DNA of 63,687 nucleotides, filler included, from Nemertoderma westbladi (lineage: Eukaryota > Animalia > Xenacoelomorpha): assembly GCA_032718475.1 (NCBI GenBank). It is 4 parts of 4 records of this genome, joined end to end, with 100 filler letters (N's around TTAATTAATTAA, not from the genome) between each part and the next. Parts side by side here need not be neighbours in the genome. Positions count along the whole stretch, not along the records: positions 1 to 20,306 come from JAUCBJ010007666.1; 3 more parts are not named here. The stretch is one strand, 5' to 3'. A program made the position numbers and the translations under genes. The notes under the pieces were generated by a model. It was not told where the DNA came from. It searched no databases and worked only from the letters and a program-made list of their open reading frames with translations. The stretch's first letter is position 1. The number at the start of each line of letters is the position of its first letter. Below, piece after piece: positions 5,591 to 58,929 of this stretch.

Positions 5591-6128
5591 GCCTTGGTAT
5601 TATGTGACTGAGGGATGTAATCACTCAATCACTAGTAGCTCAACCATCTTTTAACTAATAAATTATTGTTTCCTTTTAGGCCTAAGTTTTCGCCTACTTT
5701 TCCTGTTTTTTATTTTATATTCAAAATCCCTTATACTTTTTTGTAACTTATATTAATAAAATCTATAATTAATTTATTACAAATTTATTTATTAAAATGC
5801 AACATATATTTAGGTTTATTTTGTACATTGAGCAAAAATAATTTGACTAAGTTTGACTAATTTGAACCAATTTGACTAGGGATTTCACACAAAGCCCTTG
5901 GGAGAATCAAATAAATTACAATGCGTTACATGTAAGTGTAATTTTTAAATTTTTTATGAATAATACATGGAGTATTTTTACAATGATTAAATAATAAATA
6001 AATGGCAATGTGGAGGTCGAGTTATATCCGACTTTATACGCTTCATGAAATAATTAAATTTGTTTGAATAATCGACTTTGGGCCCGTAGCTACATATGCA
6101 ATATATACATTATACTATATACAATATG

Positions 6129-9100
6129 TTATTGATTATTTCCCGTAGTTCACTGTAGGTTATTGATTGTTTCCCGTAGCTCACTAACTATAGGTTATTG
6201 ATTGTTTCCCGTAGCTCACTATAGGTTATTGATTATTTCCCGTAGCTCACTATAGGTTATTGATTGTTTCTCGTAGCTCACTATAGGTTATTGATTGTTT
6301 TCTGTAGCTCACTATAGGTTATTGATTGTTTCCCGTAGCTCACTATAGGTTATTGATTGTTTCCCGTAGCTCACTATAGGTTATTGATTGTTTCCCGTAG
6401 CTCACTAACTATAGGTTATTGATTGTTTCCCGTAGCTCACCATAGGTTATTGATTATTTCCCGTAGCTCACTATAGGTTATTGATTGTTTCCCGTAGCTC
6501 ACTAACTATAGGTTATTGATTGTTTCCCGTAGCTCACTATAGGTTATTGATTATTTCCCGTAGCTCACTATAGGTTATTGATTGTTTCCCGTAGCTCACT
6601 AACTATAGGTTATTGATTATTTCCCGTAGCTCACTATAGGTTATTGATTGTTTCCGGTAGCTCACTAACTATAGGTTATTGATTGTTTCCCGTAGCTCAC
6701 TATAGGTTATTGATTGTTTCCCGTAGCTCACTATAGGTTATTGATTGTTTCCCGTAGCTCACTAACTATATAGGTTATTGATTGTTTCCCGTAGCTCACT
6801 AACTATAGGTTATTGATTATTTCCCGTAGCTCACTATAGGTTATTGATTGTTTCCCGTAGCTCACTATAGGTTATTGATTATTTCCTGTAGCTCACTAAC
6901 TATAGGTTATTGATTGTTTCCTGTTGCTCACTGTAGGTTATTGATTGTTTCCCGTAGCTCACTAACTATAGGTTATTGATTGTTTCCCGTAGCTCACTAA
7001 CTATAGGTTATTGATTGTTTCCCGTAGCTCACTAACTATAGGTTATTGATTATTTCCCGTAGCTCACTATAGGTTATTAATTGTTTCCCGTAGCTCACTA
7101 TAGGTTATTGATTGTTTCCCGTAGCTCACTAACTATAGGTTATTGATTGTTTCCTGTTGCTCACTGTAGGTTATTGATTGTTTCCCGTAGCTCACTAACT
7201 ATAGGTTATTGATTTTTTCCCGTAGCTCACTAACTATAGGTTATTGATTATTTCCCGTAGCTCACTATAGGTTATTGATTGTTTCCCGTAGCTCACTATA
7301 GGTTATTGATTGTTTCCCGTAGCTCACTATAGGTTATTGATTGTTTCCCGTAGCTCACTAACTATAGGTTATTGATTATTTCCCGCAGCTCACTATAGGT
7401 TATTGATTGTTTCCCGTAGCTCACTAACTATAGGTTATTGATTATTTCCCGTAGCTCACTATAGGTTATTGATTGTTTCCCGTAGCTCACTAACTATAGG
7501 TTATTGATTATTTCCCGCAGCTCACTATAGGTTATTGATTGTTTCCCGTAGCTCACTAACTATAGGTTATTGATTGTTTCCCGTAGCTCACTAACTATAG
7601 GTTATTGATTGTTTCCCGTAGCTCACTAACTATAGGTTATTGATTATTTCCCGTAGCTCACTATAGGTTATTGATTGTTTCCCGTAGCTCACTATAGGTT
7701 ATTTATTATTTCCTGTAGCTCACTATAGGTTATTGATTGTTTCCTTTTGCTCACTGTAGGTTATTGATTATTTCCTGTAGCTCACTATAGGTTATTGATT
7801 TATTTCCCGTAGCTCACTAACTTTAGGTTATTGATTGTTTCCCGTAGCTCACTATAGGTTATTGATTATTTCCCGTAGCTCACTATAGGTTATTGATGGT
7901 TTCCCGTAGCTCACTAACTATAGATTATTGATTGTTTCCCGTAGCTCACTATAGGTTATTGATTGTTTCCTGTAGCTCACTAACTATAGGTTATTGATTG
8001 TTTCCCGTAGCTCACTAACTATAGGTTATTGATTGTTTCCCGTAGCTCACTATAGGTTATTGATTGTTTCCCGTAGCTCACTATAGGTTATTGATTATTT
8101 CCCGTAGCTCACTATAGGTTATTGATTGTTTCCCGTAGCTCACTATAGGTTATTGATTGTTTCCCGTAGCTCACTATAGGTTATTGATTGTTTCCCGTAG
8201 CTCACTATAGGTTATTGATTGTTTCCCGTAGCTCACTATAGGTTATTGATTGTTTCCCGTAGCTCACTAACTATAGGTTATTGATTATTTCCCGTAGCTC
8301 ACTATAGGTTATTGATTGTTTCCGGTAGCTCACTAACTATAGGTTATTGATTGTTTCCCGTAGCTCACTATAGGTTATTGATTGTTTCCCGTAGCTCACT
8401 ATAGGTTATTGATTGTTTCCCGTAGCTCACTAACTATATAGGTTATTGATTGTTTCCCGTAGCTCACTAACTATAGGTTATTGATTATTTCCCGTAGCTC
8501 ACTATAGGTTATTGATTGTTTCCCGTAGCTCACTATAGGTTATTGATTATTTCCTGTAGCTCACTAACTATAGGTTATTGATTGTTTCCTGTTGCTCACT
8601 GTAGGTTATTGATTGTTTCCCGTAGCTCACTAACTATAGGTTATTGATTGTTTCCCGTAGCTCACTAACTATAGGTTATTGATTGTTTCCCGTAGCTCAC
8701 TAACTATAGGTTATTGATTATTTCCCGTAGCTCACTATAGGTTATTAATTGTTTCCCGTAGCTCACTATAGGTTATTGATTGTTTCCCGTAGCTCACTAA
8801 CTATAGGTTATTGATTGTTTCCTGTTGCTCACTGTAGGTTATTGATTGTTTCCCGTAGCTCACTAACTATAGGTTATTGATTTTTTCCCGTAGCTCACTA
8901 ACTATAGGTTATTGATTATTTCCCGTAGCTCACTATAGGTTATTGATTGTTTCCCGTAGCTCACTATAGGTTATTGATTGTTTCCCGTAGCTCACTATAG
9001 GTTATTGATTGTTTCCCGTAGCTCACTAACTATAGGTTATTGATTATTTCCCGCAGCTCACTATAGGTTATTGATTGTTTCCCGTAGCTCACTAACTATA

Positions 9101-12100
9101 GGTTATTGATTATTTCCCGTAGCTCACTATAGGTTATTGATTGTTTCCCGTAGCTCACTAACTATAGGTTATTGATTATTTCCCGCAGCTCACTATAGGT
9201 TATTGATTGTTTCCCGTAGCTCACTAACTATAGGTTATTGATTGTTTCCCGTAGCTCACTAACTATAGGTTATTGATTGTTTCCCGTAGCTCACTAACTA
9301 TAGGTTATTGATTATTTCCCGTAGCTCACTATAGGTTATTGATTGTTTCCCGTAGCTCACTATAGGTTATTGATTATTTCCTGTAGCTCACTATAGGTTA
9401 TTGATTGTTTCCTTTTGCTCACTGTAGGTTATTGATTATTTCCTGTAGCTCACTATAGGTTATTGATTTATTTCCCGTAGCTCACTAACTTTAGGTTATT
9501 GATTGTTTCCCGTAGCTCACTATAGGTTATTGATTATTTCCCGTAGCTCACTATAGGTTATTGATGGTTTCCCGTAGCTCACTAACTATAGGTTATTGAT
9601 TGTTTCCCGTAGCTCACTATAGGTTATTGATTGTTTCCTGTAGCTCACTAACTATAGGTTATTGATTGTTTCCCGTAGCTCACTAACTATAGGTTATTGA
9701 TTGTTTCCCGTAGCTCACTATAGGTTATTGATTGTTTCCCGTAGCTCACTATAGGTTATTGATTGTTTCCCGTAGCTCACTAACTCTAGGTTATTGATTG
9801 TTTCCCGTAGCTCACTAACTATAGGTTATTGATTGTTTCCCGTAGCTCACTATAGGTTATTGATTGTTTCCCGTAGCTCACTAACTATAGGTTATTGATT
9901 GTTTCCTGTAGCTCACTATAGGTTATTGATTGTTTCCTGTAGCTCACTAACTATAGGTTATTGATTGTTTCCCGTAGCTCACTAACTATAGGTTATTGAT
10001 TGTTTCCCGTAGCTCACTATAGGTTATTGATTGTTTCCCGTAGCTCACTATAGGTTATTGATTGTTTCCCGTAGCTCACTAACTATAGGTTATTGATTGT
10101 TTCCCGTAGCTCACTATAGGTTATTGATTGTTTCCCGTAGCTCACTAACTATAGGTTATTGATTATTTCCCGCAGCTCACTATAGGTTATTGATTGTTTC
10201 CCGTAGCTCACTAACTATAGGTTATTGATTGTTTCCCGTAGCTCACTAACTATAGGTTATTGATTGTTTCCCGTAGCTCACTAACTATAGGTTATTGATT
10301 GTTTCCCGTAGCTCACTATAGGTTATTGATAGTTTACTGTAGCTCACTAACTTTAGGTTATTGATTGTTTCCCGTAGCTCACTAACTCTAGGTTATTGAT
10401 TGTTTCCCGTAGCTCACTCTAGGTTATTGATTGTTTCCCGTAGCTCACTAACTATAGGTTATTGATTGTTTCCCATAGCTCACTATAGGTTTTTGATTAT
10501 TTCCCGTAGCTCACTATAGGTTATTGATTGTTTCCCGTAGCTATAGGTTATTGATTATTTCCTGTAGCTCACTATAGGTTATTGATTATTTCCCGTTGCT
10601 CACTATAGGTTATTGATTGTTTCCCGTAGCTATAGGTTATTGATTATTTCCCATAGCTCACTATAGGTTATTGATTATTTCCCGTAGCTCACTATAGGTT
10701 ATTGATTGTTTCCCGTAGCTATAGGTTATTGATTATTTCCTGTAGCTCACTATAGGTTATTGATTATTTCCCGTAGCTCACTATAGGTTATTGATTATTT
10801 CCTGTAGCTCACTATAGGTTATTGATTTATTTCCCGTAGCTCACTAACTTTAGGTTATTGATTGTTTCCCGTAGCTCACTATAGGTTATTGATTATTTCC
10901 CGTAGCTCACTATAGGTTATTGATGGTTTCCCGTAGCTCACTAACTATAGGTTATTGATTGTTTCCCGTAGCTCACTATAGTTTATTGATTGTTTCCTGT
11001 AGCTCACTAACTATAGGTTATTGATTGTTTCCCGTAGCTCACTAACTATAGGTTATTGATTGTTTCCCGTAGCTCACTATAGGTTATTGATTGTTTCCCG
11101 TAGCTCACTATAGGCTATTGATTGTTTCCCGTAGCTCACTATAGGTTATTGATTGTTTCCCGTAGCTCACTAACTCTAGGTTATTGATTGTTTCCCGTAG
11201 CTCACTAACTATAGGTTATTGATTGTTTCCCGTAGCTCACTATAGGTTATTGATTGTTTCCCGTAGCTCACTAACTATAGGTTATTGATTGTTTCCTGTA
11301 GCTCACTATAGGTTATTGATTGTTTCCTGTAGCTCACTAACTATAGGTTATTGATTGTTTCCCGTAGCTCACTAACTATAGGTTATTGATTGTTTCCCGT
11401 AGCTCACTATAGGTTATTGATTGTTTCCCGTAGCTCACTATAGGTTATTGATTGTTTCCCGTAGCTCACTATAGGTTATTGATTGTTTCCCGTAGCTCAC
11501 TAACTATAGGTTATTGATTGTTTCCCGTAGCTCACTATAGGTTATTGATTGTTTCCCGTAGCTCACTAACTATAAGTTATTGATTGTTTCCCGTAGCTCA
11601 CTAACTATAGGTTATTGATTGTTTCCCGTAGCTCACTATAGGTTATTGATTGTTTCCCGTAGCTCACTAACTATAGGTTATTGATTGTTTCCCGTAGCTC
11701 ACTATAGGTTATTGATTGTTTCCCGTAGCTCACTAACTATAGGTTATTGATTATTTCCCGTAGCTCACTATAGGTTGTTGATGGTTTCCCGTAGCTCACT
11801 ATAGGTTATTGATTGTTTCCCGTAGCTCACTAACTATAGGTTATTGATTGTTTCCCATAGCTCATGTAGGTTATTGATTGTTTCCCGTAGCTCACTAACT
11901 ATAGGTTATTGATTGTTTCCCGTAGCTCACTATAGGTTATTGATTATTTCCCGTAGCTCACTATAGGTTATTGATTATTTCCTGTAGCTCACTATAGGTT
12001 ATTGATTGTTTCCCGTAGCTCACTATAGGTTATTGATTGTTTCCCGTAGCTCACTATAGGTTATTGATTGTTTCCCGTAGCTCACTAACTATAGGTTATT

Positions 12101-12176
12101 GATTGTTTCCCGTAGCTCGCTGTAGGTTATTGATTGTTTCCCGTAGCTCACTATAGGTTATTAATTGTTTCCCGTA
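6129..12176 (+). repeat. About 6-kb tandem satellite; 31-bp unit ATAGGTTATTGATTGTTTCCCGTAGCTCACT with 35-bp (+AACT) and rarer 27/37-bp variants
   Basis: Contiguous units with no unique spacers; rare variants recur at a 1668-bp offset. Confidence 0.98.
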
Positions 12177-12595
12177 ATCAATCAATAATATTTATTTAAT
12201 TCCTTGTTTTAAATATAGCAAATTATCCAAAATAACACCCAACACCAATTCATTTATTCAGTAAAATATTGAGAATAGGGATCGAGTGTTAGGGTGGAAT
12301 AGGTAAGAATGAGGAAACGGTAAGCTAGCTAATAGCAAAGCTAGTAGACGCTAACTACCGGAGGTGGGGGAGGGAGGGGGGGGGGGGCTCAAGGGAAATG
12401 TTTATTCATTTGCACTAGTAATGGGACGGTATGGGACGTTGGGGGAAGGGGGGGAAGTTGGTAGCCTGCCATTTCTAAAATTTTGTATAATTTAAATTAA
12501 TAAGTTGAGGTTTGATAATACATTAGCATATTAGCTAGTGGATATTAATATACTGAACATTAACATTATTTAAATTATTGAAAGCTGCGCTATAC

Positions 12596-12785
12596 AGTAG
12601 CTCACTATAGGTTATTGATTGTTTCCCGTAGCTCACTAACTATAGGTTATTGATTGTTTCCCGTAGCTCACTGTAGGTTATTGATTGTTTCCCGTAGCTC
12701 ACTAACTATAGGTTATTGATTGTTTCCCGTAGCTCACTATAGGTTATTGATTATTTCCTGTAGCTCACTATAGGTTATTGATTAT
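12596..12785 (+). repeat. Short detached array of the same 31/35-bp satellite
   Basis: About six units, separated from the main array by roughly 420 bp of unrelated, partly G-rich sequence. Confidence 0.95.
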
Positions 12786-13567
12786 TCGCACTTTATTTGT
12801 ACTGTACAAAAATCAATACTCATTCTAACACTATCACTAATAATAGTGGGCTATGGTAAAATTCCTCCTTCAATACTGTAGGTTACAGACTTATTTTTTC
12901 AATACCACTTCAATACCACACCTATCGTATACAGTAGGCTTGACAAGTCTACATCAGCACTGGTCTGGCGTTCTAACTTGCAAGTAGGCATCAGAGCTGG
13001 GATCTATACATGAGTAATCAGCATGCACACAGGAAAATTACTTCAGTCTGTTCCTATTGGTTGAATGGATTAAAACCATCCTCAGTAGTAAGAGTATAAC
13101 CTTTTCGGCGACAGTTGGACCTACTTCGCACCTTAGGTGTTAAGTAGGTCATTAATTAATTAAACAATTAATTAATTGGTTGATTAAACAATTAATTAAT
13201 TGTTTAATCGATCGATTTGTATCAAATAATGTTGCCAAAGGCAATTTAATTTGACACAAATCAATCAGATAGGGATGCACGATGAATAGATTGTACTACA
13301 GTAGATAAAATATACAATACAATAGGAACAATAATACAATATACAATACTTTTGTATTATTTTTGTCACACAATAGAATGATAGAATGAAATAAAAAGAT
13401 GCGAGCGGGACCCAAAACATAAATTACCCTTTCAGGAAAATAAAGTGGGCCAGTTTGGTCCTGGTTCAGTCCCTCAATAATCTGAGGCTGTTTGGGCTCT
13501 TATTAGACGTAGCATGGCATGGCTAATCCCATTGAATCCTATGTTGAGTTATACTGTATACCAACAT

Positions 13568-13845
13568 GGGGCTGCCACGAATTTTAAATTATTTAAACCT
13601 CCAGCTTCGTTATCATGTAGACCATTGTCAAATCGCCTGAGAAATTACAATAAACATCTGGTTTGCAATAGATTGCATTCTTTCACATTGTGTTGTGAAG
13701 CAGCCTGCGCGCCTGATCGCACGCTCCAAATATTAGCTCAGTTACAAAGCCAGTACCCAAAAACCATATGTTAAATTAATCCTCAACCGCCTCTACTACT
13801 GCAGTTTTATGTACTGCTTAATCCTTCACGTATGCCATGCCAAAA
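13568..13845 (+). repeat. Direct repeat copy 1, upstream of the GTSF1-like ORF
   Basis: GGGGCTGCCACGAATTTTAAATTATTTAAACCTCC...GCAATAGATTG is near-identical over about 108 bp to 14494-14601, then patchy to CCTTCACGTA. Confidence 0.95.
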
Positions 13846-13880
13846 ACTATGGCCTTGTTTGCAATGTTAAGGTGGACCTT

Positions 13881-13916
13881 TCTATATAAATAAAAATCAT
13901 GTAAAGTTAAATCATT
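13881..13916 (+). promoter_or_regulatory. TATA box and initiator-like TCATT upstream of the GTSF1-like ORF
   Basis: TCTATATAAA at 13881 and TCATT at 13912, at typical TATA-Inr spacing; the ATG is at 13996. Confidence 0.5.
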
Positions 13917-13995
13917 ATCTCTAAAAAATGTTACAGTGAAGTTTTCCAAAGTTTTCTTTTAAATTAAATCCTATTAAATTTGTCTTTTTGGCACT

Positions 13996-14259
13996 ATGGA
14001 TTATCTTATATGCCCATATGATGCTACACATAGGATTCTTTTAGATAAATATGTAAAACACATAAGAAAGTGTCGGAAGAACTTTCCCAGCGAAAAAATG
14101 GTACAGTGCCCATTTGAAAATACACACAGTTTCAGAGAAGCTGAAAGGGAACATCACTTAAAATTTTGCGAGTATAGAAACAGGAGTTCCCTTTTCGAGA
14201 ATTCGAAAGAAGAAGAGATTAAATGGCCAGCGGCATGGGGAGAAGAGGTGTGGGATTGA
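13996..14259 (+). CDS. GTSF1-like: Minimal GTSF1/Asterix-like protein (87 aa): two CHHC U11-48K zinc fingers and a C-terminal Trp motif
   Basis: C6-x5-H12-x9-H22-x3-C26 and C38-x5-H44-x9-H54-x3-C58, with GTSF1-typical CPYD..H, H..KCRKN and CPF. The tail W77-x8-W86-D87 has the spacing of the mouse GTSF1 WQCPPCDEDWD motif as I recall it. Intact from ATG to stop. Confidence 0.9.
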   Translation: MDYLICPYDATHRILLDKYVKHIRKCRKNFPSEKMVQCPFENTHSFREAEREHHLKFCEYRNRSSLFENSKEEEIKWPAAWGEEVWD

Positions 14260-14493
14260 CATGCAAACACACCAAGTGTCGTCTTGCACGCCATCGTCTT
14301 GGTAATGATGCGATTCTCCGTACCCTAAACTCATTAGTTTATGACAGAACTCGTATTATAAAAGAGAGGGAATTTTGATTTGGTGGCGGGATGCAATAAT
14401 TTTAACTTTATCATTCCTAATAGTGCAATATAGTCTGAAGTAACCCGGTTAGGGCAAAAACGTTCACTAATAAGAAGTGTTTTCATACAGCCA

Positions 14494-14735
14494 GGGGCTG
14501 CCACGAATTTTAAATTATTTAAACCTCCAGCTTTGTTATCATGTAGACCATTGTCAAATCGCCTGAGAAATTACAATAAACATCTGGTTTGCAATAGATT
14601 GGCTTCTTTCACATTGTACAGTACTTTATGAAGCAGCCCGCGCGCATGTTAAATTAATACCCAACCATTTCTATACTAGATACTATAGTTTTTGTTTGAA
14701 GTATTGCATAACCCCCTTCACGTATACAATGCCTA
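14494..14735 (+). repeat. Direct repeat copy 2, downstream of the GTSF1-like ORF
   Basis: Offset 926 bp from copy 1; contains AATAAA at 14575. Confidence 0.95.
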
Positions 14736-14769
14736 AAATATTTGTTCAGATACTGTAGTTTAACATTAA

Positions 14770-15005
14770 TTAACATACCCAATCTAACTTCAATCGCCTC
14801 ATATATTTCTTATATGGCTTCAATTTTTTAACAATCTTTCCATCAATATTTATATTCCCATAGAGTGTGTTCAGTGTAATATTAATGAGAAGTCGTGTTA
14901 ATTCGCTACTAGCTTTTTTTTTCGAATAAATGCTCCTCGCGCTAATGTGTTGCTATTTTTCAAAAATTATAGTTCTTTCCTATACTTTCGTATATTAAGT
15001 TCCAT
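14770..15005 (-). pseudogene. Polinton PW-like small basic protein, disrupted
   Basis: Manual translation: MELNIRKYRKEL*FLKNSNTLARGAFIRK/ASSELTRLLINITLNTLYGNINIDGKIVKKLKPYKKYMRRL. This resembles the LN.L.GN.P/I...KKL..YK..R.L pattern of the small Maverick protein that follows the ATPase. One stop and one frameshift. Confidence 0.6.
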
Positions 15006-15106
15006 ACTTGTTCTATAATATTAAGAAATTTAAGAAACCTTTGTCGATGATAAACCACAAATAAGTATAATATAACTAAATAACAGACAATTGCTAATAG
15101 AAGCAT
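14960..15106 (-). CDS. Small single-transmembrane ORF between the ATPase and the PW-like gene
   Basis: MLLLAIVCYLVILYLFVVYHRQRFLKF...; it overlaps both neighbours in compact viral style. Confidence 0.35.
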   Translation of the reverse strand: MLLLAIVCYLVILYLFVVYHRQRFLKFLNIIEQVWNLIYESIGKNYNF

Positions 15107-15575
15107 TCTTCTATGTATATTACGACACGGGTTGATAAACACAATGTTTCCTTTGTAAATAAATACCCACGTATACGTAGGCTATCATCCGTTAATTGAT
15201 GAAAATCAATAAGAAGTGGGTTAAAGGGAACCTTTGTTGCGTCTTGAAATGCCGCAATTAAGAATTTGGGGGTATTTGGTTTCATCTGATAGGCTAAAGT
15301 TCTTATCTGTGTCTGATCGATCCATTGGATTTTTGAACAATAAGAAATAAGTGGAATTAATGGAACGGGTTCTAGATTCTCCTCCTTTTTGATAAAGGTT
15401 TTGAGTGAGAAAAATTACCAATGAATTTGTATGTCGAGCTACTTTAGTAAAACGTTCCAAACAAGCGACTACGCTCGCTTGTTTGGAATTTTGTAGTTCT
15501 GTCATCAAATCGTCGATTATAATGATAGAATGGTTTTTCGCATTTTCATTAAAGTGTTCTGGAATTTCATTTAAA
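15094..15575 (-). pseudogene. A32/FtsK-like DNA packaging ATPase, C-terminal half
   Basis: Walker B IIIIDDLM, FTKVARH, IFLTQNLY, RTRSINSTYFLLFKNP.D, then after a frameshift AFQDATKVPFNPLLIDF...LRIR. Walker A is absent. Confidence 0.9.
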
Positions 15576-16975
15576 GTGGTAATATCAACACCGGTAACCG
15601 AAAGAAAGAAACTGTCGGTGTCCCCGGCTAGGGCACGAATTTCACATCTCAGCTTTTTTTCAAGAGGTTTCAGTTTACAGTAATAGTAATCATACATCTC
15701 TAGCTTTGAAAGATCTAAGATGGTTGCCCCAATAAATACAGCTTGATTGAGTACTGCTACTTCTTTAGTAAAAGTGTGACCACTGAGATAGGGGGAGAAC
15801 GAGATGAAGCGTTCATGATTTTGGTTTTGATAATAGCAGGTCACACTGTTCTGGAGATACAGAGTCGGAATGATAACCGGTCTCACACCTTCTGAAGACT
15901 TTTCCCATAGAGAGAGTTGTTGAGTAGTTTATAAAATAAAACTTTGAATGCATTTTTAGCAGATTGTCGTTTGGATGTATTAAACGAGATATAGTCTCTG
16001 AATATGTATTTTTGAGTGAAGGAGTATACTTTATGCACCTGTGTTATTTGAAGTCCTAATTTTAAGTATAATTGGAGTAATTTTATATGAATACCATAAT
16101 TAGTTTTTTTGAATTGATGAAGAATCAGTTTACTATATTTCTCATTATATTGCTTATAAGTCCCTTGATCATTGAGATTGTAATGTTGCCAGAGGTCTTG
16201 CATGTATGTACTGAGGAAGCTCTTGGGAATGGACATTTTTTCCTCTCCTAGTGGTAGGTCAGCAGTTTCGTCGTGGATCTCTCGGGGGTATTCGAGGTCA
16301 ACTATGCAGTAATATCCTACTGACAGATCTATTGGTGTATCGACGATTTTCATATTACTGCAGGGGAGCTTCTGAGAGAGAGCAGAACCATAAAGGTTAT
16401 TCGCATCGAGAGGAATTAGGTATTTTTCTGGTTTACAGGGGTTGTATTCTGGTTTGCCAGGTATATTAGCTTCCTCTAAGTGTGTATTCAGAAATACAAG
16501 CCCTCCGCGAATATTATTTTCAAAATCTGCGTAAATAGTTCCATCAGATAGTAGTTCAATTTCACTGTTGGTAAATTCCAACGCCGCATCGTACGTTAAG
16601 CCCGATGAAGTATAATAATGCAGAGGATCTAAGCCATAATTGGAGAAACATAGTTCCCTAAACTGTTGGAAAGTATCCGCGAGAAGTGTAACATCTAGAG
16701 CCAAATATCCCATCATATAATCAAATATGGTTTGACATTGAAGCTCAACCCAACTAGTTTGGGCACGCTGATATTATGCTCGCTGCAGTCTTCAAGCTGT
16801 AAATCATTATAGAAACTCTCGATTGGTGGTAATCGTGTTTCGTATAAGTTTGTTATGGATTGTATATAGCTATAAGGAAATATACCTTTATTTTTAATAG
16901 TGGAATCGCTAATATTGGGATAAAGATTTTTCATTTGTTTCAAAGTGTGTGGGATAGCTTTAGTTAGATCAGAAT
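15576..16975 (-). pseudogene. Protein-primed family B DNA polymerase (pPolB), frameshifted and truncated
   Basis: KGIFPYSY, DVTLLADTF, YGLDPLHYYT, IRGG, motif A DANNLYG, motif B KLLNNSLYGK and motif C GDTDS, spread over three frames. Confidence 0.95.
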
Positions 16976-19273
16976 TGTTTGCAGTAAGAGGAGGAGGAAT
17001 AGGAGACTAAGAAGAGGAGGATAAACTAAGAAGAGGATAAACTTTCTTCTATTTTTGCAACAGTTATTAATATAGCTGCGATTGGTTTAACATTTTTAAT
17101 TAAGTTGTGATCCTAAGCGATCTATATAAATGGTTAAATTGTATCAATAAGAGTTCATTTTGAAAACATTAAACTTTCTATATTAGTGATACCGGTAGTA
17201 TATTTTATTTATTTATATTGTAATTAATATTACAATTAATATTTATTGTTTTAATTATTTGTCTAATATTGAATAAAGTATTGTTCATTGTGTATGGTGA
17301 AACATCTAAACTAAATTATTTACAACACTTAAAGACATATTTCATTAGTTATACATGCATTATTTCATCATCAGATGGAGAGATATTCAGATGTAAAAAA
17401 AGAATAACAGCCTGTAAAGAAATTATATTGTTTTTATAACCAGACAAGTCCAGCTGCAACATTTAATATTTATTATGAGATTATTTATATAACAATTATC
17501 AGTTATCTGAATTCCCAGACTGATTTAAATGTTGGATTGGTGAAAATATTAAACTTTATATTTTGATTTGGAAAAATTATTGAATTGTCCAGTTTGCAAA
17601 TGTGTACAAATAAAAAAGAATTATTTATGTCGTCTGAAAATACATTTCATAGCTTATATATGCAAATGTTACAAAACAATAACAGCTGTACAACTGTAAG
17701 GAAATTAAATATTGTTTGTATAAACAGATATGTCCTAACTGTATAATGTTTACTAGAAGATTATTTACATCACGATTGTTATCTGAAATATTATTACATA
17801 AAAAAAGCAGAAATCAAGGCCAAACCATACTGTCGGTATAGAAAACTGAATAATTAGTATTATTCCGAATAGGAAATCTATATGATACTTGTGTGAGAAT
17901 GCAGTTTGTTATTTATTGTGTTTTCATTGTCAGACTTCAACATCAAAAATAACTACATCCACATGTCACCGATATTGAAATAGAGTTTTGTTGTTTGCTA
18001 ACTGATATGCCCGGGCTGCAGCCCTGGGATTGGTTAATGAGCTATTATTTGATTGGACGTTGAAATCATTAAGGAATGGAAAGAGGGGTCGAACTACTAG
18101 TGTTAAAGGTTTATACTCAGTTGGCAGGCAGGTATAGAAAGTGTTCCAAACGGCTGTAAGGAATGGAGAAATTGGGTGAAATCATGTAAGGATTATCTGC
18201 CTAGTAAACGGTTCATTCATTGTCAGGTGAATGAAAAAAATCTATACGAATAGCAGTCAGTATACCTACATATATTTAGAGTGGAAATAATGTTGTATAA
18301 GGAATCGTTTTACACACCATTTTCTCCTTGATTTTTCCGATCGAATAGATTATAATAATAAAGTTTTACTGGTAGTATTTAATATTACAATTCATTCATT
18401 TTAAATTCATATTTAAAAGCATTTCGCAATATTATGTAAACATAAAAGCTCAAATGAAATAAAATCTTAATTTTTGTAATGTCACTAATAATGTAATGTC
18501 AATGAAACTACACATTGAGATGCTAAGCCAGCTTAACAAAAACATTTTGTCACCATCATGTAATCCATAATTGTCAAGCGTAATGCAGCGTGCATCAAGA
18601 ATGCTAGGGCGGCTTATCAACAAAGATGCACTGCTCAGCCCTGTATAAACAATAGTCCATGGGCCAGCGAGCATAGGGGATACTTTTTGGTAACCACCCG
18701 GAACTTATATTTTTGGGAAGACCTAGCTTCTGGCCATTTATTTTGATATGATAACAAATCTAAATCGGTAGCTGACTTGGTGTTATCACCGGTTGTCATG
18801 GAAATGGCAAAATAACAAACATGCTGTAGTAGTTTAAGAACCCAATATAAATTATTCGCGTCTTCTGAAAAAGATAGCTACTGGTCTAACAATTCTAAAT
18901 GTGTCATACAATTCTGGAATATAATTATTGTTGCCATAGGAGCGCTGCTAAATTAAAACTGGCATGTTTTAGAAAAATAGCTACCATTTTAGAACAATAT
19001 AATTATTTTAAAAACTAATTGCCACATGTTGTTGAATACTAGTTTTGGAAAATTTTGGTATACTGAGAGCGAAACTTGTTTTGTTATAACGGTTATATAT
19101 GGTACCAAAGTTATACCCATGTATGAAATCTTTTTCTTTATCAACATTTTAATCTCATTTCACTCTGTTTCAAAATTATGACAAAATATTTAGGTCAATG
19201 AAAAGCAATCAATCATAATGTCACTACAATACAATACTTTAAAATAACAAGTGACATCTAAATAGTATTTCAG

Positions 19274-20306: not shown

Positions 20307-20406
20307 NNNNNNNNNNNNNNNNNNNNNNNNNNNNNNNNNNNNNNNNNNNNTTAATTAATTAANNNNNNNNNNNNNNNNNNNNNNNNNNNNNNNNNNNNNN
20401 NNNNNN
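20307..20406. other. Assembly gap with synthetic linker
   Basis: 44 N + TTAATTAATTAA + 44 N; identical structure at 38992 and 58830. Confidence 0.98.
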
Positions 20407-27499: not shown

Positions 27500-28300
27500 T
27501 ACGGAAGCCCATAACGGCCATGTCGCGTGCAAACTTCCATGTCAAGCGCGCAAACTCGTCATGGTAGTTTGCGCGCGCGACATGGAAGTTTGCGCGCGCG
27601 TCATGGAAGTTTGCGCGCGCGTCATGGAAGTTTGCGCGCGCGTCATGGTAGTTTGCGCGCGCGACATGGAAGTTTGCGCGCGCGACATGTTGAAGCCCAT
27701 AACGGCCAAGTCGCGCGCAAACTTAATGTAATTTTTTGAATTATGTCTGGGTGGGAAATTTGAATTTATGTGACCTACTGTTTGACTGTTCAGCTGTTAG
27801 TAATGCAGGAGGAATACAGTTCAGCAGATTGACTATCTGACATACTGACAGACTAGCAGTAGCTTAGCAGTGCTGCAGTGTAAGGTATTGTTGTACAGTC
27901 AGTGTGAGAGTAGCAGAGAGCCTATACGGCATACGGCTATAGCAGGCCTATTCCTGTTCAGGGGTTCGCATTACAGTCAAACAGTAGGACATCTAAATTC
28001 AAATTTCCCGCCCAGACAAAATTCAAAACGGAAATGACATGAAGTTTGCGCGCGACATGACCGTTATGTCCTTCCCCATATCGCGTGCGCAAACTTCCAT
28101 GTCGTGCGCGCAAACTTCCATGTCGTGCGCGCAAACTTCCATGTCGCGCGCGCAAACTTCCATGTCGCGCGCGCAAACTTCCATGTCGCGCGCGCAAACT
28201 TTCATGTCACGCGCGCAAATGTTTCTACACTGAAATGGCATAACGTTTGCGCGCTTGACATGGAAGTTTGCGCGCGACATGGCCGATATGGGCTTCCGTA
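27500..28300. mobile_element. Non-autonomous IS3EU-like DNA transposon with 21-bp subterminal repeats
   Basis: TIRs TACGGAAGCCCATA / TATGGGCTTCCGTA (TAY..RTA termini) and inverted arrays of CATGGAAGTTTGCGCGCGCGA. No TSD is visible. Confidence 0.75.
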
Positions 28301-28722: not shown

Positions 28723-31700
28723 GCTTAAATAAATGCTTAATATACGTATAGGTTCCTACAACTGTCATGGTATCAAGTCCAGTATGGATGAGGTAGCTCA
28801 GCTTCTAACTGACCTTGATATACTCGCAGTGCAGGAACACTGGCTAGACGATTTGGAGGCCAAACTACTTTTGCCTAATTTAAATAATGAATTTATCTGC
28901 CTCTTCAGCATCGGATCACTAATGCAGAATCCCAATCGGGTACGTGGTTCAGGCGGTGTATGTTTATGGTTCAGGAGGGATCTATTTCATCACGTTAGTG
29001 CCATTTACAGCTCTGATGACATTATTGGTTTCGAGGCTTCCCCTAAATGTTCTGATGTGTTTGGCCCAAATATCATATTCATCAGTTGTTATGCTCCAGA
29101 TGCCTCCAAAGATGACAATTTATATGAGGACTTCCTTTCACGCCTTACGAACATAATCAACCTACACTCTTTCGCAATCCCGTTTATTCTAGGTGACACA
29201 AATTCAGATGTTGGCCGTTTGCAAGGACCCCGACACTGCAGGGACAACGCAACAAAGCGTGGAAAAAGGCTAAATACTTTTGCTCTGAACAATAACCTTG
29301 TCATCGCTGACACTCTTCCAAAGTTTTCAGGACCTTGTATTACTTACAGGGGTAATGGAACTTCATACATAGACCACCTTCTAATTAGTAAGCATACTTA
29401 CAATAATTTACTTGTTGGAGTGATACATGATCAGGACATGTATCTATTTTCAGATCATGTACCAATAACTGCTGTCTTTAGTTTTCCAACCACAACCTCA
29501 TCATCACCCAAAGTCGATGCACATAATATTAAGAAGACAAGGGTTTCACCTAAAGTAGCTTGGAACAGGGTACAAGAATATCATATCCTTAATTATGAGA
29601 AGGACATTCAGAATCAGCTGAATACATTATATGAATCTACCCGGGGACCAGCAATACACTGGACAGGCTTGGAGTTATATGAATTCGTTGTTCGATTTCA
29701 AGAAATAATTATAACTGCTGCCAATATCCACTTACCCAAGTGCCCTAAACGCAGTAAATTAAGTAGAAACTTACGGATTCGATCAGCTGTTTTGCATGAC
29801 AGATCAAAAACGTGCAGTAAGTTACACTGGTTATGGACCATGAATGGCAAGAAAGAAGACTGTAAGTTTGGAGCAGCATTTACAGAATCTCGACGATCAC
29901 TTAAACGCTTAAAGAACTGGCTTTCAAAGTCAATTGTCACCGATAATATTAAGAGGAGGGTGGGGAACATGAAGAGCAATCCACGTAATTTTTGGAATTT
30001 TTTCAAAGCCAAGTCTGTCCACACCCCGCCTGAGCTTGCTCAAGAAGCGATCCGTAAAGACCTCCACGATACCCACTTCAAGAACGATTTGTATGATCAG
30101 TCTAGAACCGAGTTTGTTCAGGAGTTGCATGATCGTTGCTCAACCACAACTGCTCCTGTAATATCTGCTCTCACTGTGAAAAGAGCTATGGCATCTCTCT
30201 CACGAGGTAAATCTCAAGATGCATTTTCATTAGTGGCAGAACACTTTCTTTGTTTAAACTCTGACTACACTTATCAGGCTCTCGCCGATATATTCAATGG
30301 CTGTTTTAGGTTAGGAGTGCCAGAACTCTTCGGGCACACTATTATCACCAGTCTTCACAAAGGAAAAGGTCGGGATCCTCTTCTGGCCAAGTCATATCGC
30401 CCTATTTCAACAGTCAGTTGCTTAGGAAAGATTTTTGAATCTGTGGTACTGGCCGAATTTTTATCAATACCTGAATTCATACCTGGCTCTCAATTCGCAT
30501 ACCAACGCAAGATTGGTTCGGACATAATAATTGGGTGTATCCTTGAATTCCTTGAAGCACAGCGATCGAGTGGTAAATCGGTTTTTCTATGCCAGATCGA
30601 CATCAAAGGGGCCTTTGATAATGTTGACCATATATTATTGTTCCGCAAGTTGTTACAAACACATTAATCCGCATATATGTTTTGCTCTATACACTTACTA
30701 TACATGCACAATGGCATTCCTGAAATTTGGCGACTACATTGATAGCGACGGGATACACCTAATCAAAGGAGTCAAACAAGGATCCTTATTATCACCCTTA
30801 TTATTTTTGTTGTATACTAAAGATGCGCTACACAATATGAATGATGATGGCGCTGGGTTCAATATAACTTTGATGTGGCTTGGTATCGTGGCTTATGCCG
30901 ACGATTTTCTTCTTTGCGCCGACACAGCTGCCAAACTTGAGACACTTGTTGCTCGCCTTATTGATGTACTAAATGATCTGAAACTTCATGTCGAACATAG
31001 CAAGACAAAATGGATCTGTCATCGTGGAATTGGGACTACCACTGCACCGATACCTTGCTTTATTAACGCAGGCGGTACTCTAATAAGCGAAAGTCCTACG
31101 TTTGTTTTCCTTGGATTCAATTTATTATCCGCACCCAACTCAAACCTCCATAAAGACTGTATCCAGACAATCTCGATACTCTCAGATATGTTCCATCGGA
31201 AAGGTTGGACAGTCCGCAACATCGACATTGATACTATTTCCTATCTGTGGCGAACTATTGCCGTCCCATCTATTTCGTATAGTCTGAAATTCAACATAGG
31301 GGCACTCAGTAAGGTTGCCATTGAGAAGGTTGATGTTCACTACCGCAAGGCATTGCGTGGTCTCCTGCATATTGGTTCCTACGTTGACAACAACATTGTA
31401 TACAACATTTTAGGCTGCCATCCCATATCCACAATAGCATATCAACTATGTGTTGGGACTATACTGAGGTCTCGTTATTGCCCTAATATAATTTTACAAG
31501 CTCTGCTGGGGGTTTGCTTAAATGATACAATGGCCGGTAACCGCCGCTATGTTGGTCTCGGCTCGACCTATGATGCGTGTAGATGTACTTTCCCACTGCC
31601 ACGTCTGTCATCATTACTGAGTTACAGCTACAGTATGCCGTTCATTGAAAGAGAGATTACAACCTGACCAACTCACATATCTAGAGACATTTCAACTCAA

Positions 31701-32639: not shown

Positions 32640-33158
32640 ATGTCTCAAGAGTGCACTATTGAAGCTCTAAAAAAAGCTTTGTCTTCGACCGGTGGAATAA
32701 TATTTGCAAGGGATGCTTACAACGAGGTATTCCATAATCTCTTTATAAGTGAGTTCTCTGTCGCCCAAAACCTGCCGCTTCTCCAACGTCTGGGAATCAC
32801 GCATGTAGTCAACACAGCGGGTGGTGACGTCAGCATAGGAGCTGGTCCTTATGAGGGAGTTGGTATAAAATATCACGAGATACCTGGCCACGACGCTCCA
32901 TGGTTCCAGATGATAGACCACATAGAAGGCGCTTCCCAATTCATCGACGCGGCATTTAATAGTCCAACCTCTAAGGTCTTAGTCCACTGTTTGATGGGGT
33001 TCAGTCGTGCGCCTACTGTTTGTGTAATGTTCCTTATGAAATACCGAAACTTGAGGGCAGTTGATGCCATAGCAACGATTAGGGCTAAACGCCCCATTGG
33101 CCCTAATGAGGGTTTTCTTAAACAAATCGCCTGTCTTGACATTCAACTATTCTCGTAA
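32640..33158 (+). CDS. Atypical dual-specificity protein phosphatase (DUSP3/13/26-like), intronless
   Basis: Catalytic loop VHCLMGFSRAPT (HCxxGxSR), LGITHVVN, general-acid Asp in GHDAP, RPIGPNEGFLKQ; 172 aa with no rhodanese domain. Confidence 0.95.
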   Translation: MSQECTIEALKKALSSTGGIIFARDAYNEVFHNLFISEFSVAQNLPLLQRLGITHVVNTAGGDVSIGAGPYEGVGIKYHEIPGHDAPWFQMIDHIEGASQFIDAAFNSPTSKVLVHCLMGFSRAPTVCVMFLMKYRNLRAVDAIATIRAKRPIGPNEGFLKQIACLDIQLFS

Positions 33159-38991: not shown

Positions 38992-39091
38992 NNNNNNNNN
39001 NNNNNNNNNNNNNNNNNNNNNNNNNNNNNNNNNNNTTAATTAATTAANNNNNNNNNNNNNNNNNNNNNNNNNNNNNNNNNNNNNNNNNNNN
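38992..39091. other. Assembly gap with synthetic linker
   Basis: 44 N + TTAATTAATTAA + 44 N. Confidence 0.98.
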
Positions 39092-46299: not shown

Positions 46300-47611
46300 A
46301 TGGGTGATATTCGTGGTGAAGACCAAGCGCTTAAAGAACGCAATGAACAGTGGTCAACTAAAGGTCGACAAATTCTCACGGTTCGAATTCCGGCTGTGAT
46401 AAACCGACTGTCTGTCTTGCTAGACAGCGAACCATGGACCAGTTACAAACCGCCGTTTGAAAACGCTGAAATTGTCATCGACCCAGTCTGTTGCCATGCG
46501 GACATTGCGGATGACGACGACACCGACTCCGCAGAGAACGGTGGAGATGAGCCGGGGAAATCGAAAAAATGCCACATGAAGATCCATGCGGCTGTACCAA
46601 TCAACACCAAGCTCGTTGAATTGAGTAGTATAGTCTCGGATTATCTCATGGAGACGCTAGATGATGTCTCCAATTTGCGGGCTTGGGTTAATCTCTTGGT
46701 ACCAAAGGTTGAAGATGGCAATAACTTCGGGGTTGGCATCCAGAATATGGTGATGCAGACGATGATTCATGTTGAGAAGAGGTGTGGGGACGGTTTAGAG
46801 TCGATTACCTCTTATCATAACAAAAGGCAAGTATTTTAGGTCTACCGTTTTAATCTCAGGCCGAATCCCCTGCCCTACATACTTGAAAACAAGTCGTAAA
46901 CTTCAGTCATACTGTATATATACAGTAGCGCACGTCTACGTCGTCTAGTGAGTTTTTGAAATATTCCGTCTCCTCCTGTTGCAAACTTTTCAAATATCAG
47001 TAATGACCCACCGCTACCGCAGATTAATGTTTTACAACAACTAATATTTTATATCCTCATTGCTATTGCGTTGATCATATCTATCAGAACTATATGTCGG
47101 ATTGTGTTTTTAATTTCAAGATACAAATGGACAGGAAGACATTTAATGCATTTTTTTTAAGATGATTAATTAATAACGAATTAAATAAAAAATTCATATA
47201 AAAGGTGATCATTACGCCAAACTCTCTAATTTCTGTTGTTTAAATTAGAACAATACCAGACAACTAACAATAATATTATTATCTTGTTTCGTAAGTTTTA
47301 ATATCGGACCGGATATCAAAAGTGATTTCCGGTGCGCAGCAAATTATTATTACTACAATTATTGAATTATTATATAATTGATGTGTTTGTTATTATTTCT
47401 CAGGGGCCATTTAGTCGCCAAACTGACTGCGTCGCCACATGTCGCTGACTATCGACAAGCTATAGTTTTTCTGGATAGACACGCCTTCTTCTCTTTTCGT
47501 CTATTGCTCATCAGTATGGCGCACACGTACAGCAGTCTCTACCAAAAAATGATGAAGAATTTAGACAAGATTGAACAGCCAAGAAGCAACAACGCATCTA
47601 ATATGTATTAA
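46300..47611 (+). CDS. PSME3: Proteasome activator PA28/REG (PSME3-like); exons 46300-46826 and 47404-47611, 244 aa
   Basis: Activation loop LLVPKVEDGNNFGVGIQ, PHVADYR and C-terminus KNLDKIEQPRSNNASNMY. The phase-2 intron is AG|GCAAGT...CAG|G. Confidence 0.93.
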
Positions 47612-55624: not shown

Positions 55625-56050
55625 TCAATGAGCAGCGCGTTTATTGTGCTCCTCGGCCAGTTTCATCTTTTCATTCCTATCGTATTCCCTGCGTTTAATC
55701 CGTTTCGCGCGTTCGTACAACTTGGCGCGGTAAAACGAATCCTCTTCCATGCAATTGGTCCAGATCTCATACTCGGGACGGCAGCTGGCAGCACCGTATG
55801 GGTACCGATCTCGTTGGCACTGCTGTAGCTCCATCCACAGGTTCACGCAATAGTTCCGGTACATAGCGGGTATCTGGGCTCGGTTCATGTCTTGTATGGT
55901 CACCGGTGGTTGTCTGACCTCCCAGTCCTCCGGGAACGGAACCGTCGCGTTTATCGCCGCAACTTCTTTCGGATGAGGGACCAAACCTTTTCGCGCGTCC
56001 GGTGATATGTAATAATTCCACCATTTCATTGTAGTCTCGTAGTTTCCCAT
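55625..56050 (-). CDS. NDUFB7: Complex I accessory subunit B18, intronless
   Basis: N-terminal MG, twin CX9C (CVNLWMELQQC and CRPEYEIWTNC), M..AQIP..YRNYC and a charged C-terminal helix YERAKR. Confidence 0.88.
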   Translation of the reverse strand: MGNYETTMKWWNYYISPDARKGLVPHPKEVAAINATVPFPEDWEVRQPPVTIQDMNRAQIPAMYRNYCVNLWMELQQCQRDRYPYGAASCRPEYEIWTNCMEEDSFYRAKLYERAKRIKRREYDRNEKMKLAEEHNKRAAH

Positions 56051-57146: not shown

Positions 57147-58600
57147 TACGGTGGCCCATAACTGTCACAGGATATAAAAAGGAACGGCAGAAATTAAAAA
57201 GCCACGGCAGAAATTAAAGAAGCTACGGCAGAAATTAAAAAGCTACGGCAGAAATTAAAAAGCCACGGCAGAAATTAAAGAAGCTACGGCAGAAATTAAA
57301 GAAGCTACGGCAGAAATTAAAAAGCCACGGCAGAAATTAAAAAGCCACGGCAGAAATTAAAGAAGCTACGGCAGAAATTAAAAAGCCACGGCAGAAATTA
57401 AAAAGCCACGGCAGAAATTAAAGAAGCTACGGCAGAAATTAAAAAGCCATGATTATTACTATACATAATCATATCATTTCCGTGGGTAACGTAGGCCTAC
57501 TACAACAGTAGTACTACAGTACATTCAGTATAACAATAATGTTAAGTCTTACGCAGACAGTACAACATACAGTATTATTGGCAGACACTGCCCATTGCAG
57601 TACAATATGCCTGGATGTTGTGAACTGATATCATTCTATTTTAATGCTGGGTTTTCGTACAACGATATCATCAATTTTTTGAGTTTATCAGGAATTGAAA
57701 TAAGCTACAGCACGCTTTTACGAAAACTTGCAGATTATGGATTGTCAAGAAGAAATCCCGTAACGCAATATTTGAAAGACGGTGTTTCGGAAAGGATAAT
57801 GGAACTTCTTAATGGACCTGATTCTGCAGGGGGATATCGAACTGTGTGGCATACCCTACAATTGGAGGGCATTAGCATCCCGCGCTCTCTTGTAGAAGAT
57901 CTGCTCAGAACTTTAGATCCCGAAGGTACTAATTTACGAAAGCGTCATAAGTTAAAGCGACGTCACTACTACACACCTGGACCGAACCATAGTTGGCACA
58001 TGGATGGCTATGATAAACTCAAGCCATGGGGTTTTCCCATCCACGGGGCAATCGACGGGTTTAGTCGTAAGGTGTTGTGGTTGAGCGTCTTGAAGTCAAA
58101 TAACTCTCCCGATGCAATTGGTCATTTGTATATGGACTGCGTGCGCTCATATGGTTATCCCTGCAAATTGATAACAGACCTGGGGACTGAAAATGGGATC
58201 GCAGCATCGCTGCAAACATTTCTTAAACAAGACATGGATTCCCATAAATATGTGAGTTCTCCTAGGAATCAACGTATCGAGGCCTGGTGGGCCCAACTAT
58301 CTAAGAACAGATCAATTTGGTGGAGGTATTTTTTTTACAGAAGATACATAGAAGATGAGGGTTCGATAATTCGCAATTATGAAGAAGCGATTGCTTATGA
58401 GATTTCTGAGAATACCGACGATGACCTTCCTAAAAATAAAGGTTCTGAAGTTTCCAAAGTAGATATGAGTCCCGCTGGAATATTAAAATGGTTGACTGGA
58501 CAAAAGCACAAACCAATGAATAATGATAGGTTTATAATCACCGTCTTATTTGATCATGATTGTGATCGTGATCGTGATTGTGATCATGATCAAATCCTGG
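57147..58600 (+). mobile_element. IS3EU-like DNA transposon: left end, subterminal array and internally deleted coding region
   Basis: TACGGTGGCCCATA terminus, 20/21-bp repeats CGGCAGAAATTAAA(A/GA)AGC at 57185-57449, then the transposase ORF. Confidence 0.8.
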
Positions 58601-58680
58601 TAAATAAAATAGAGGTAAGAGGATGTTTCGTAAAAATCATTTACATAAAATATAAAACACCCGCACACATCCTTTATTAA
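57607..58680 (+). CDS. IS3-like integrase-core DDE transposase, C-terminally fused to a HECT-like fragment
   Basis: N-terminal HTH, GYR, WHMDGYDKLKPWGFPIHGAIDGFSR, ITDLGTEN, NQRIEAWW. After about 58335 the sequence changes to SPAGILKWLTGQKHKP..ITVLFDHDC. Confidence 0.8.
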   Translation: MPGCCELISFYFNAGFSYNDIINFLSLSGIEISYSTLLRKLADYGLSRRNPVTQYLKDGVSERIMELLNGPDSAGGYRTVWHTLQLEGISIPRSLVEDLLRTLDPEGTNLRKRHKLKRRHYYTPGPNHSWHMDGYDKLKPWGFPIHGAIDGFSRKVLWLSVLKSNNSPDAIGHLYMDCVRSYGYPCKLITDLGTENGIAASLQTFLKQDMDSHKYVSSPRNQRIEAWWAQLSKNRSIWWRYFFYRRYIEDEGSIIRNYEEAIAYEISENTDDDLPKNKGSEVSKVDMSPAGILKWLTGQKHKPMNNDRFIITVLFDHDCDRDRDCDHDQILVNKIEVRGCFVKIIYIKYKTPAHILY

Positions 58681-58829: not shown

Positions 58830-58929
58830 NNNNNNNNNNNNNNNNNNNNNNNNNNNNNNNNNNNNNNNNNNNNTTAATTAATTAANNNNNNNNNNNNNNN
58901 NNNNNNNNNNNNNNNNNNNNNNNNNNNNN
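58830..58929. other. Assembly gap with synthetic linker
   Basis: 44 N + TTAATTAATTAA + 44 N. Confidence 0.98.

Follow-up and report, generated by a model that had tools for sequence, protein, structure and literature searches.

A GTSF1-like gene probably carried by a Polinton in Nemertoderma westbladi: a candidate mimic of a host cofactor of the piRNA pathway

The window analyzed here is a stretch of 63,687 nucleotides (nt) from the genome of the xenacoelomorph Nemertoderma westbladi (GCA_032718475.1), and it contains at positions 13996-14259 (+ strand) an intronless open reading frame (ORF) of 87 amino acids (aa) that encodes a protein of the GTSF1/Asterix type. We propose, with a probability of roughly 0.45, that this is a trimmed GTSF1-type protein, multi-copy and under selection, which is an accessory gene of a Polinton (Maverick) and acts as a competitive mimic of the Gtsf cofactor of the host. 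The window consists of four contigs joined by linkers (N-TTAATTAATTAA-N at 20307-20406, 38992-39091 and 58830-58929), and genes on opposite sides of a linker are not genomic neighbours. The GTSF1-like ORF shares its contig (1-20306) with the remnants of a protein-primed DNA polymerase B (pPolB), a packaging ATPase and a further small ORF; the host genes used for comparison, DUSP, PA28 and NDUFB7, are on other contigs.

The initial annotation described a protein of 87 aa with two perfect CHHC fingers and an end of the form W77-x8-W86-D87, and both the ORF call and Pfam, which finds two zf-U11-48K stretches (E 2.4e-13), agree with this description. The fingers are formed by C6-H12-H22-C26 and C38-H44-H54-C58, and the protein ends in an acidic tail with W77, W81 and W86-D87, directly followed by the stop codon. 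By sequence and fold the only solved relatives in the PDB are mouse GTSF1 and the silkworm GTSF1 of the SIWI complex, and the structure predicted for the ORF has a pLDDT (predicted local distance difference test) score of 82. The best of 621 HMMER matches are 27-50% identical to the ORF, with Watersipora GTSF1 at rank 12, and a word search for close homologues of 47-153 aa returned none. A tree of 226 finger regions groups the ORF, whose branch is long, with two unnamed proteins (support 0.84); the tree, which is built on the fingers only, does not resolve further and indicates no donor or host lineage.

The ORF is multi-copy and is not a single-copy host orthologue. Copies were estimated from contigs of public DNA runs aligned on the window; the runs X1, X2 and X3 are from two studies, with X1 and X3 representing a single sample that is possibly the source of the window and X2 the second study (in a further run, X5, the ORF was not covered). 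Relative to the contigs that match the ORF copy in the window (with 0 differences in X1 and X2, and 3 differences in X3), the depth over the ORF is 7.9-9.7x in X1, 5.5-7.5x in X2 and 4.5-6.1x in X3, where summed contig depth is a rough guide and not a copy number. Contigs free of gaps that differ at 19 and at 23 of 120 nt occur at 2-3x own-copy depth, and the lineages of the ORF extend down to 81% identity, with further copies at about 93%. Another copy carries an internal deletion of 210 nt (14023-14232) that is found in both studies (X1, X2), and X3 contains a gapped contig of the ORF. The case that the initial annotation regarded as fatal to its proposal, a single-copy host orthologue of GTSF1, is therefore contradicted by a depth of 4.5-9.7x, by the presence of several lineages and by differences that are mostly silent.

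Comparison of the sequences of these lineages indicates that the ORF is kept as a protein by purifying selection. Among the best 40 of 98 rows of variant sites for this stretch, 23 fall in the ORF, of which 17 are silent and 6 are replacements, corresponding to a pN/pS of 0.07-0.12 for these 23 listed sites. Zinc-ligand codons account for five of the listed sites, none of which changes a residue, and between 14094 and 14213 9 of the 12 listed sites are silent. Even in the worst case for the contig with 23 differences, if it carries these 9 silent sites and all others are counted as replacements, the silent share would be 39%, vs. 17-25% under neutrality. The corresponding binomial probabilities (1e-6 to 4e-9) are overstated, because the sites are taken from the best 40 of the 98 rows and are common to several lineages. 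In contrast to this comparison between lineages, the intactness of the copy in the window carries little information: the initial annotation was correct that the ORF is intact and that pPolB and the ATPase are broken, but with an assumed 4-8 disabling changes per 2.2 kb an ORF of 264 nt would survive by chance with a probability of 0.38-0.62, and intactness was consequently rejected as proof of selection after insertion.

Residues of the fingers and the tail can be compared with those of characterized homologues. RNA binding by mouse GTSF1 depends on R26, R29, K36 and K39, and its tight association with PIWI, which is contacted by the aromatic residues of the tail, on W98, W107 and W112; the C-terminal regions of Gtsf paralogues restrict them to specific PIWI proteins (PMC9385479). 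Our alignment with mouse GTSF1 places L15 of the ORF at R26 and K25 at K36, as the initial annotation had read it, and the basic surface of finger 1 is made up of K18, K25 and K28 in place of mouse R29, K36 and K39. The loss of arginine at this position had been suggested as a clue to a decoy, but Leu15 is not a suitable mark: leucine is the commonest residue there (51/150 homologues, with arginine in 18/150, in a list ordered by similarity to the ORF), silkworm GTSF1 has a glutamate, and most other copies of the ORF have yet another non-arginine residue at codon 15. Homologues moreover retain three of the four basic residues more often than any other number (116 out of 221 distinct sequences, with all four retained in 81), so that the surface of the ORF protein bears no mark of a lost function.

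The Trp-Asp motif of the tail is present in 199 of 244 two-finger homologues. It is separated from finger 2 by 24 residues in the ORF vs. a median of 35 in the homologues, only 3 of the 199 having a linker as short or shorter, and is followed by 0 residues vs. a median of 106, with 3 of the 199 homologues ending within 3 residues of the motif. This short form had also been taken as a sign of a decoy; however, a short paralogue encoded by a host, Bombyx Gtsf1L (BmGtsf1L), likewise ends in Trp-Asp, and its W99-D100 binds the eTudor pocket of Vreteno and enhances the binding of Ago3 (PMC10711660), so that small size was rejected as a decoy mark as well. The ORF protein thus keeps both binding surfaces known for GTSF1, and has no mark of inactivity. 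An argument for a decoy that is based on the sequence is hence not supported, and the grounds for an antagonist role are evolutionary.

Next to the ORF lie remnants of Polinton genes. The pPolB remnant (15581-16989, - strand; PF03175, E 3.8e-10; about 40% identity to full-length relatives) corresponds approximately to residues 650-1130 of relatives of about 1260 aa (16976 to 15581), lies in three frames with frameshifts near 16770 and 15850, and is cut at both ends; a deletion near 15585 has joined it to the ATPase. Of the packaging ATPase (15097-15583, - strand) a broken C-terminal half from Walker B onward is left, which was recognized (E 7e-8) with a profile made from the ATPases, 7 in number, of related loci; its match to Pox_A32 (E 0.015) is under the family cut-off. 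Both remnants had been reported before and are confirmed, but the third gene, a truncated small ORF after the ATPase (14789-14952, - strand) that had been labelled PW-like, matches nothing in Pfam, the Atlas or 29 related loci. Vertebrate Mavericks have PM in the position behind the ATPase, whereas their PW belongs to the capsid module (PMC8097293); the position of the small ORF therefore fits PM rather than PW, and the PW label was rejected.

All three remnants are oriented toward an AGTAGT motif at 13084-13089 (+ strand), the likely left end of the Polinton, which is the sole AGTAGT between 3082 and 15923 and is about 910 nt away from the ORF. In the published layout of Mavericks, an integrase/capsid module and an accessory region are found between such core genes and the end, and (AGT)2 is the commonest end motif (PMC8097293); in nematode Mavericks, cargo is located between the left terminal inverted repeat (TIR) and the integrase (bioRxiv 2022.07.12.499685). 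The step in depth from unique flank to deep repeat is estimated at 13040-13134 (mean 13081), and flank contigs stop at 13068 and 13129. An AGTAGT would be present at this boundary by chance with a probability of about 0.03 (62-nt interval) or 0.10 (208-nt bin). The very high-copy region that starts at the motif (13084-13567, no strand assigned) is likely a TIR with subterminal DNA, on the basis of its depth (11,000-82,000 at 13196-13403, declining inward) and its hairpins (13118-13150 and 13159-13208).

Between this terminal region and the core genes, the ORF is enclosed by two direct-repeat blocks, recognized by repeat identity and depth. The left block (13568-13919, + strand) has its first 124 nt 98% identical to 14494-14617, with an imperfect likeness that continues to about 13850 and 14740, respectively, and the right block (14430-14781, + strand; core 14494-14648) is cut at a junction near 14781-14789. 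The left block ends in the core promoter that had been noted upstream of the ORF and that we also find, with a TATA box at 13883-13892 and the A of the initiator (Inr) at 13914 in the correct spacing. Such a pair is expected by chance within 150 nt with a probability of about 0.005, although TATA-Inr pairs are not enriched in the window as a whole (3 found vs. 1.7 in shuffles). Depth in the left block is 23-59x own copy at 13862 and 13897, and drops after 13919, just past the Inr; in the right block it is 9-33x, with 92x in X3 at 14755. At 13862, 13897 and 14755 it amounts to 23-33x own copy in X1 and X2, vs. 20-33x for the core genes. Since most sites of the repeat blocks are about as deep as the core and depth falls after the Inr, the ORF appears to fill a variable slot of a family that is about as abundant as the Polinton, and the promoter block, 3-4x deeper than the ORF and stopping at the start site, likewise points to a larger repeat family in which the gene takes up a slot. 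Contigs of other copies also connect the promoter block to the leader and the leader to the ORF. In high-depth contigs a different sequence is found behind 14781 and before 14789, as would be expected if the integrase/capsid module has been deleted here. Separately, joints 13620-14747 and 13742-14676, which skip the whole cassette, were observed in X1, X2 and X3, and these could represent versions without the gene or a third copy of the repeat that aligns across both blocks.

Taken together, the end motif, the accessory slot, the depth of the flanks and the similarity in base composition to pPolB favour a location within the Polinton, and we consider it likely that the GTSF1-like ORF is carried by this element. 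The location in a Polinton that the initial annotation proposed thereby gains three further lines of evidence (end motif, accessory slot and flank depth), but none of the listed contigs bridges ORF and core. The end motif at 13084, the direct repeats on both sides of the ORF and its multi-copy state are additions to the initial annotation. With regard to composition, the ORF has a GC content of 0.383 and a GC content at third codon positions (GC3) of 0.368, compared to 0.368 and 0.354 for the pPolB remnant, and is AT-richer than DUSP, PA28 and NDUFB7 (GC 0.46-0.52, GC3 0.44-0.62), as had been stated.

Several observations weigh against carriage by the Polinton, or against a functional gene. 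None of the contigs listed joins the ORF to a core gene, and within the limited sensitivity of the comparison, contig 1 contains no match to the integrase, protease or capsid among the ORFs of the 29 related loci. The window contains no inverted partner of 13084-13560 that could serve as the right terminal repeat, hence no target duplication is readable. The terminal region reaches 300-1100x own copy, far above the core, and would need many non-autonomous derivatives, and sites 14443 and 14456 are at only 9-19x own copy in X2 and X3. No GTSF1-like gene is present in the 29 related Polinton-like loci (349 kb), and an ORF for an L2-type reverse transcriptase (RT) elsewhere in the window is equally low in GC3 (0.384). 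Finally, the leader of the ORF contains a short upstream ATG frame (13928), and there is no AATAAA or ATTAAA within 240 nt downstream of the ORF.

If the ORF is Polinton cargo, a role as a competitive mimic is slightly favoured, on the strength of evolutionary logic. In such a scenario the ORF probably occupies the variable slot that the direct repeats enclose within the accessory region, near the left end, and later deletions would have removed PZ, half of pPolB and the module of integrase and capsid from this copy. Its protein would be expressed in germ cells, where the Trp-Asp tail would dock on PIWI or on its Tudor scaffold, so that the Gtsf site and the RNA surface would be occupied without the partner-specific C-terminal region of the host protein, and slicing of element transcripts guided by PIWI-interacting RNAs (piRNAs) would be slowed. 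A mimic is preferred because a mobile element would gain from blunted slicing; and as C-terminal regions restrict Gtsf paralogues to their PIWI proteins, a protein that ends at the docking motif could sit in the site and yet not bring about full activation. We tentatively extend this to an antagonist of PIWI slicing that the Polinton derived from a captured and trimmed host GTSF1, and that has been exchanged between lineages as a cassette with repeats on both sides.

The main rival, which we regard as rather unlikely, accepts the ORF as Polinton cargo but holds that it encodes a working activator similar to Gtsf1L, or a neutral partner. It would stimulate one PIWI of the host, or bind transfer RNA, and benefit the element in this way, for instance through stronger silencing of competing transposons or through latency of the element. 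The retained RNA-binding surface and tail motif are compatible with this, as is selection on the fingers that is purifying rather than diversifying, and BmGtsf1L, itself short, encoded by a host and ending in Trp-Asp, works with BmAgo3 (PMC10711660, PMC9808576). However, the linker of the ORF is shorter than nearly all those compared above, and the benefit that an element would have from stronger slicing is harder to motivate. If the protein is an activator after all, it would still show how small a functional GTSF1 can be, and that a mobile element uses a host pathway in an unexpected way.

It is improbable, in our view, that the ORF belongs to another mobile family, for example of the Helitron/Helentron type with hairpin ends and tandem units of about 150 nt, and that Polinton fragments were joined to it at this locus only, by deletion or capture. 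The hairpins of the terminal region and the approximately 1000-fold depth that falls stepwise inward would fit such a family, which the terminal region may resemble. Also consistent with it are a back-joint from 14692 to 14546 (X2 depth 276), indicating tandem repeat units in other copies, one contig of X5 that joins 13347 to 13613 and thereby the deep repeat to the direct repeat, and the junction at 14781-14789, which is a break in both directions. Against this, (AGT)2 sits at the boundary of the repeat, most flank depths are in the range of the core, and the orientation of the genes fits Maverick modules. Selection at the protein level on captured genes is, in addition, more usual for viral cargo. 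Least probable of all is that short Gtsf paralogues of the host have expanded into a family, spread among repeats as retro- or segmental copies, with the Polinton as a bystander: hosts do keep several Gtsf paralogues (PMC9539491), short homologues of 105-133 aa that end at the tail motif exist and the host genes in the window are likewise intron-poor, but the promoter block, which is deeper than the gene and ends at the start site, the broken copies (with a 210-nt deletion in X1 and X2, and as a gapped contig in X3) and the low GC3 of the ORF argue against it.

With the solved GTSF1/Asterix proteins (mouse, PDB 6x46; silkworm, PDB 9nhb/9nhc) the ORF shares the tandem CHHC fingers, a basic surface on finger 1 and aromatic residues in an acidic tail. 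It differs from them in its length of 87 aa, its short linker, the lack of a C-terminal region and of introns, and in being multi-copy, between direct repeats and beside Polinton genes. Bombyx Gtsf1L, for which the position of W99-D100 in the last residues suggests a length of about 100 aa, is similarly short with a terminal Trp-Asp; but it is a host gene and not mobile, and the finger-only tree provides no orthology between the two. The accessory or cargo genes of Mavericks/Polintons (adintoviruses), such as WASP and KRMA in nematodes, the Oncoids, and homologues of Bcl2 and IAP, are comparable as captured genes in a variable region near the end, but no small-RNA-pathway protein is among the cargo described in the passages and supplements searched.

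Other mobile elements have been linked to silencing pathways. Drosophila TART-A carries sequence of the piRNA-pathway gene nxf2, from which antisense piRNAs are proposed to be made (PMC7785250); there it is a fragment that is involved, in contrast to the whole ORF conserved as a protein here. The VANC protein of Arabidopsis VANDAL elements is a transposon-encoded anti-silencing protein, but it is a DNA-binding protein of a plant. Unlike the ORF, VANC is not known to derive from a component of the silencing machinery. Proteins with which animal transposons would counter piRNA silencing are often invoked for the fast evolution of pathway genes. If our proposal is correct, this would be the first counter-defence protein encoded by an element against the animal piRNA pathway that is built from a component of that pathway, and a captured, trimmed and selected GTSF1 of a Polinton would offer a concrete candidate of 87 residues that is testable in existing PIWI slicing assays.

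The ORF is likely a kind of Polinton cargo not found in print in the literature searched. This search, outside which lay subscription journals, Repbase, figures and bioRxiv supplements, yielded no viral or Polinton GTSF1, and terms of the GTSF1 family are absent from the portions of the supplements of PMC8502044, PMC8097293 and PMC11131425 that were available. IMG/VR returned no locus for the ORF alone, an alignment of 7 sequences, the pPolB fragment alone or a 22-nt repeat word, the same word had no match in prokaryote genomes, and BFVD gave 0/387 matches at E<=0.001. A single metagenome match (L001) was rejected as a chance match of 8 residues in a bacterial contig.

Further features are found on the same contig. 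At 17125-17850 (+ strand) a second TATA-Inr promoter (CTATATAAAT...TCATT), built like that of the GTSF1-like ORF, precedes decayed ORF pieces rich in cysteine (CXXC), which have no Pfam match, are at single-copy depth and include an internal duplication (17383-17511 and 17658-17787, 73% alike). This may be an accessory region upstream of pPolB, the typical location of Oncoid genes in adintoviruses (PMC8502044). At the deletion junction of pPolB (16990-17036) there is a purine-rich filler with a duplicated 16-mer, and in contigs of X1 and X2 at least 590 other letters are found to the left of 17037, such that another allele or copy exists. ACTACT at 18093 was considered as a right end and rejected, as it does not resemble the left one. 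A 6-kb tandem array with a unit of 31/35 nt (6124-12783) is found a short distance to the left of the element.

The remaining contigs contain an L2/CR1-type retrotransposon without long terminal repeats (28733-31667), whose endonuclease and RT are encoded in two ORFs that overlap, and a foldback element (27500-28300), the long inverted arms of which are made up of 21-nt units in tandem. An ORF with an integrase core (57607-58680; PF24764, E 8.6e-23) is located on another contig and outside the Polinton element. The host genes are found at 32640-33158, 46300-47611 and 55625-56050, with DUSP and NDUFB7 as single-exon ORFs and PA28 in two parts.

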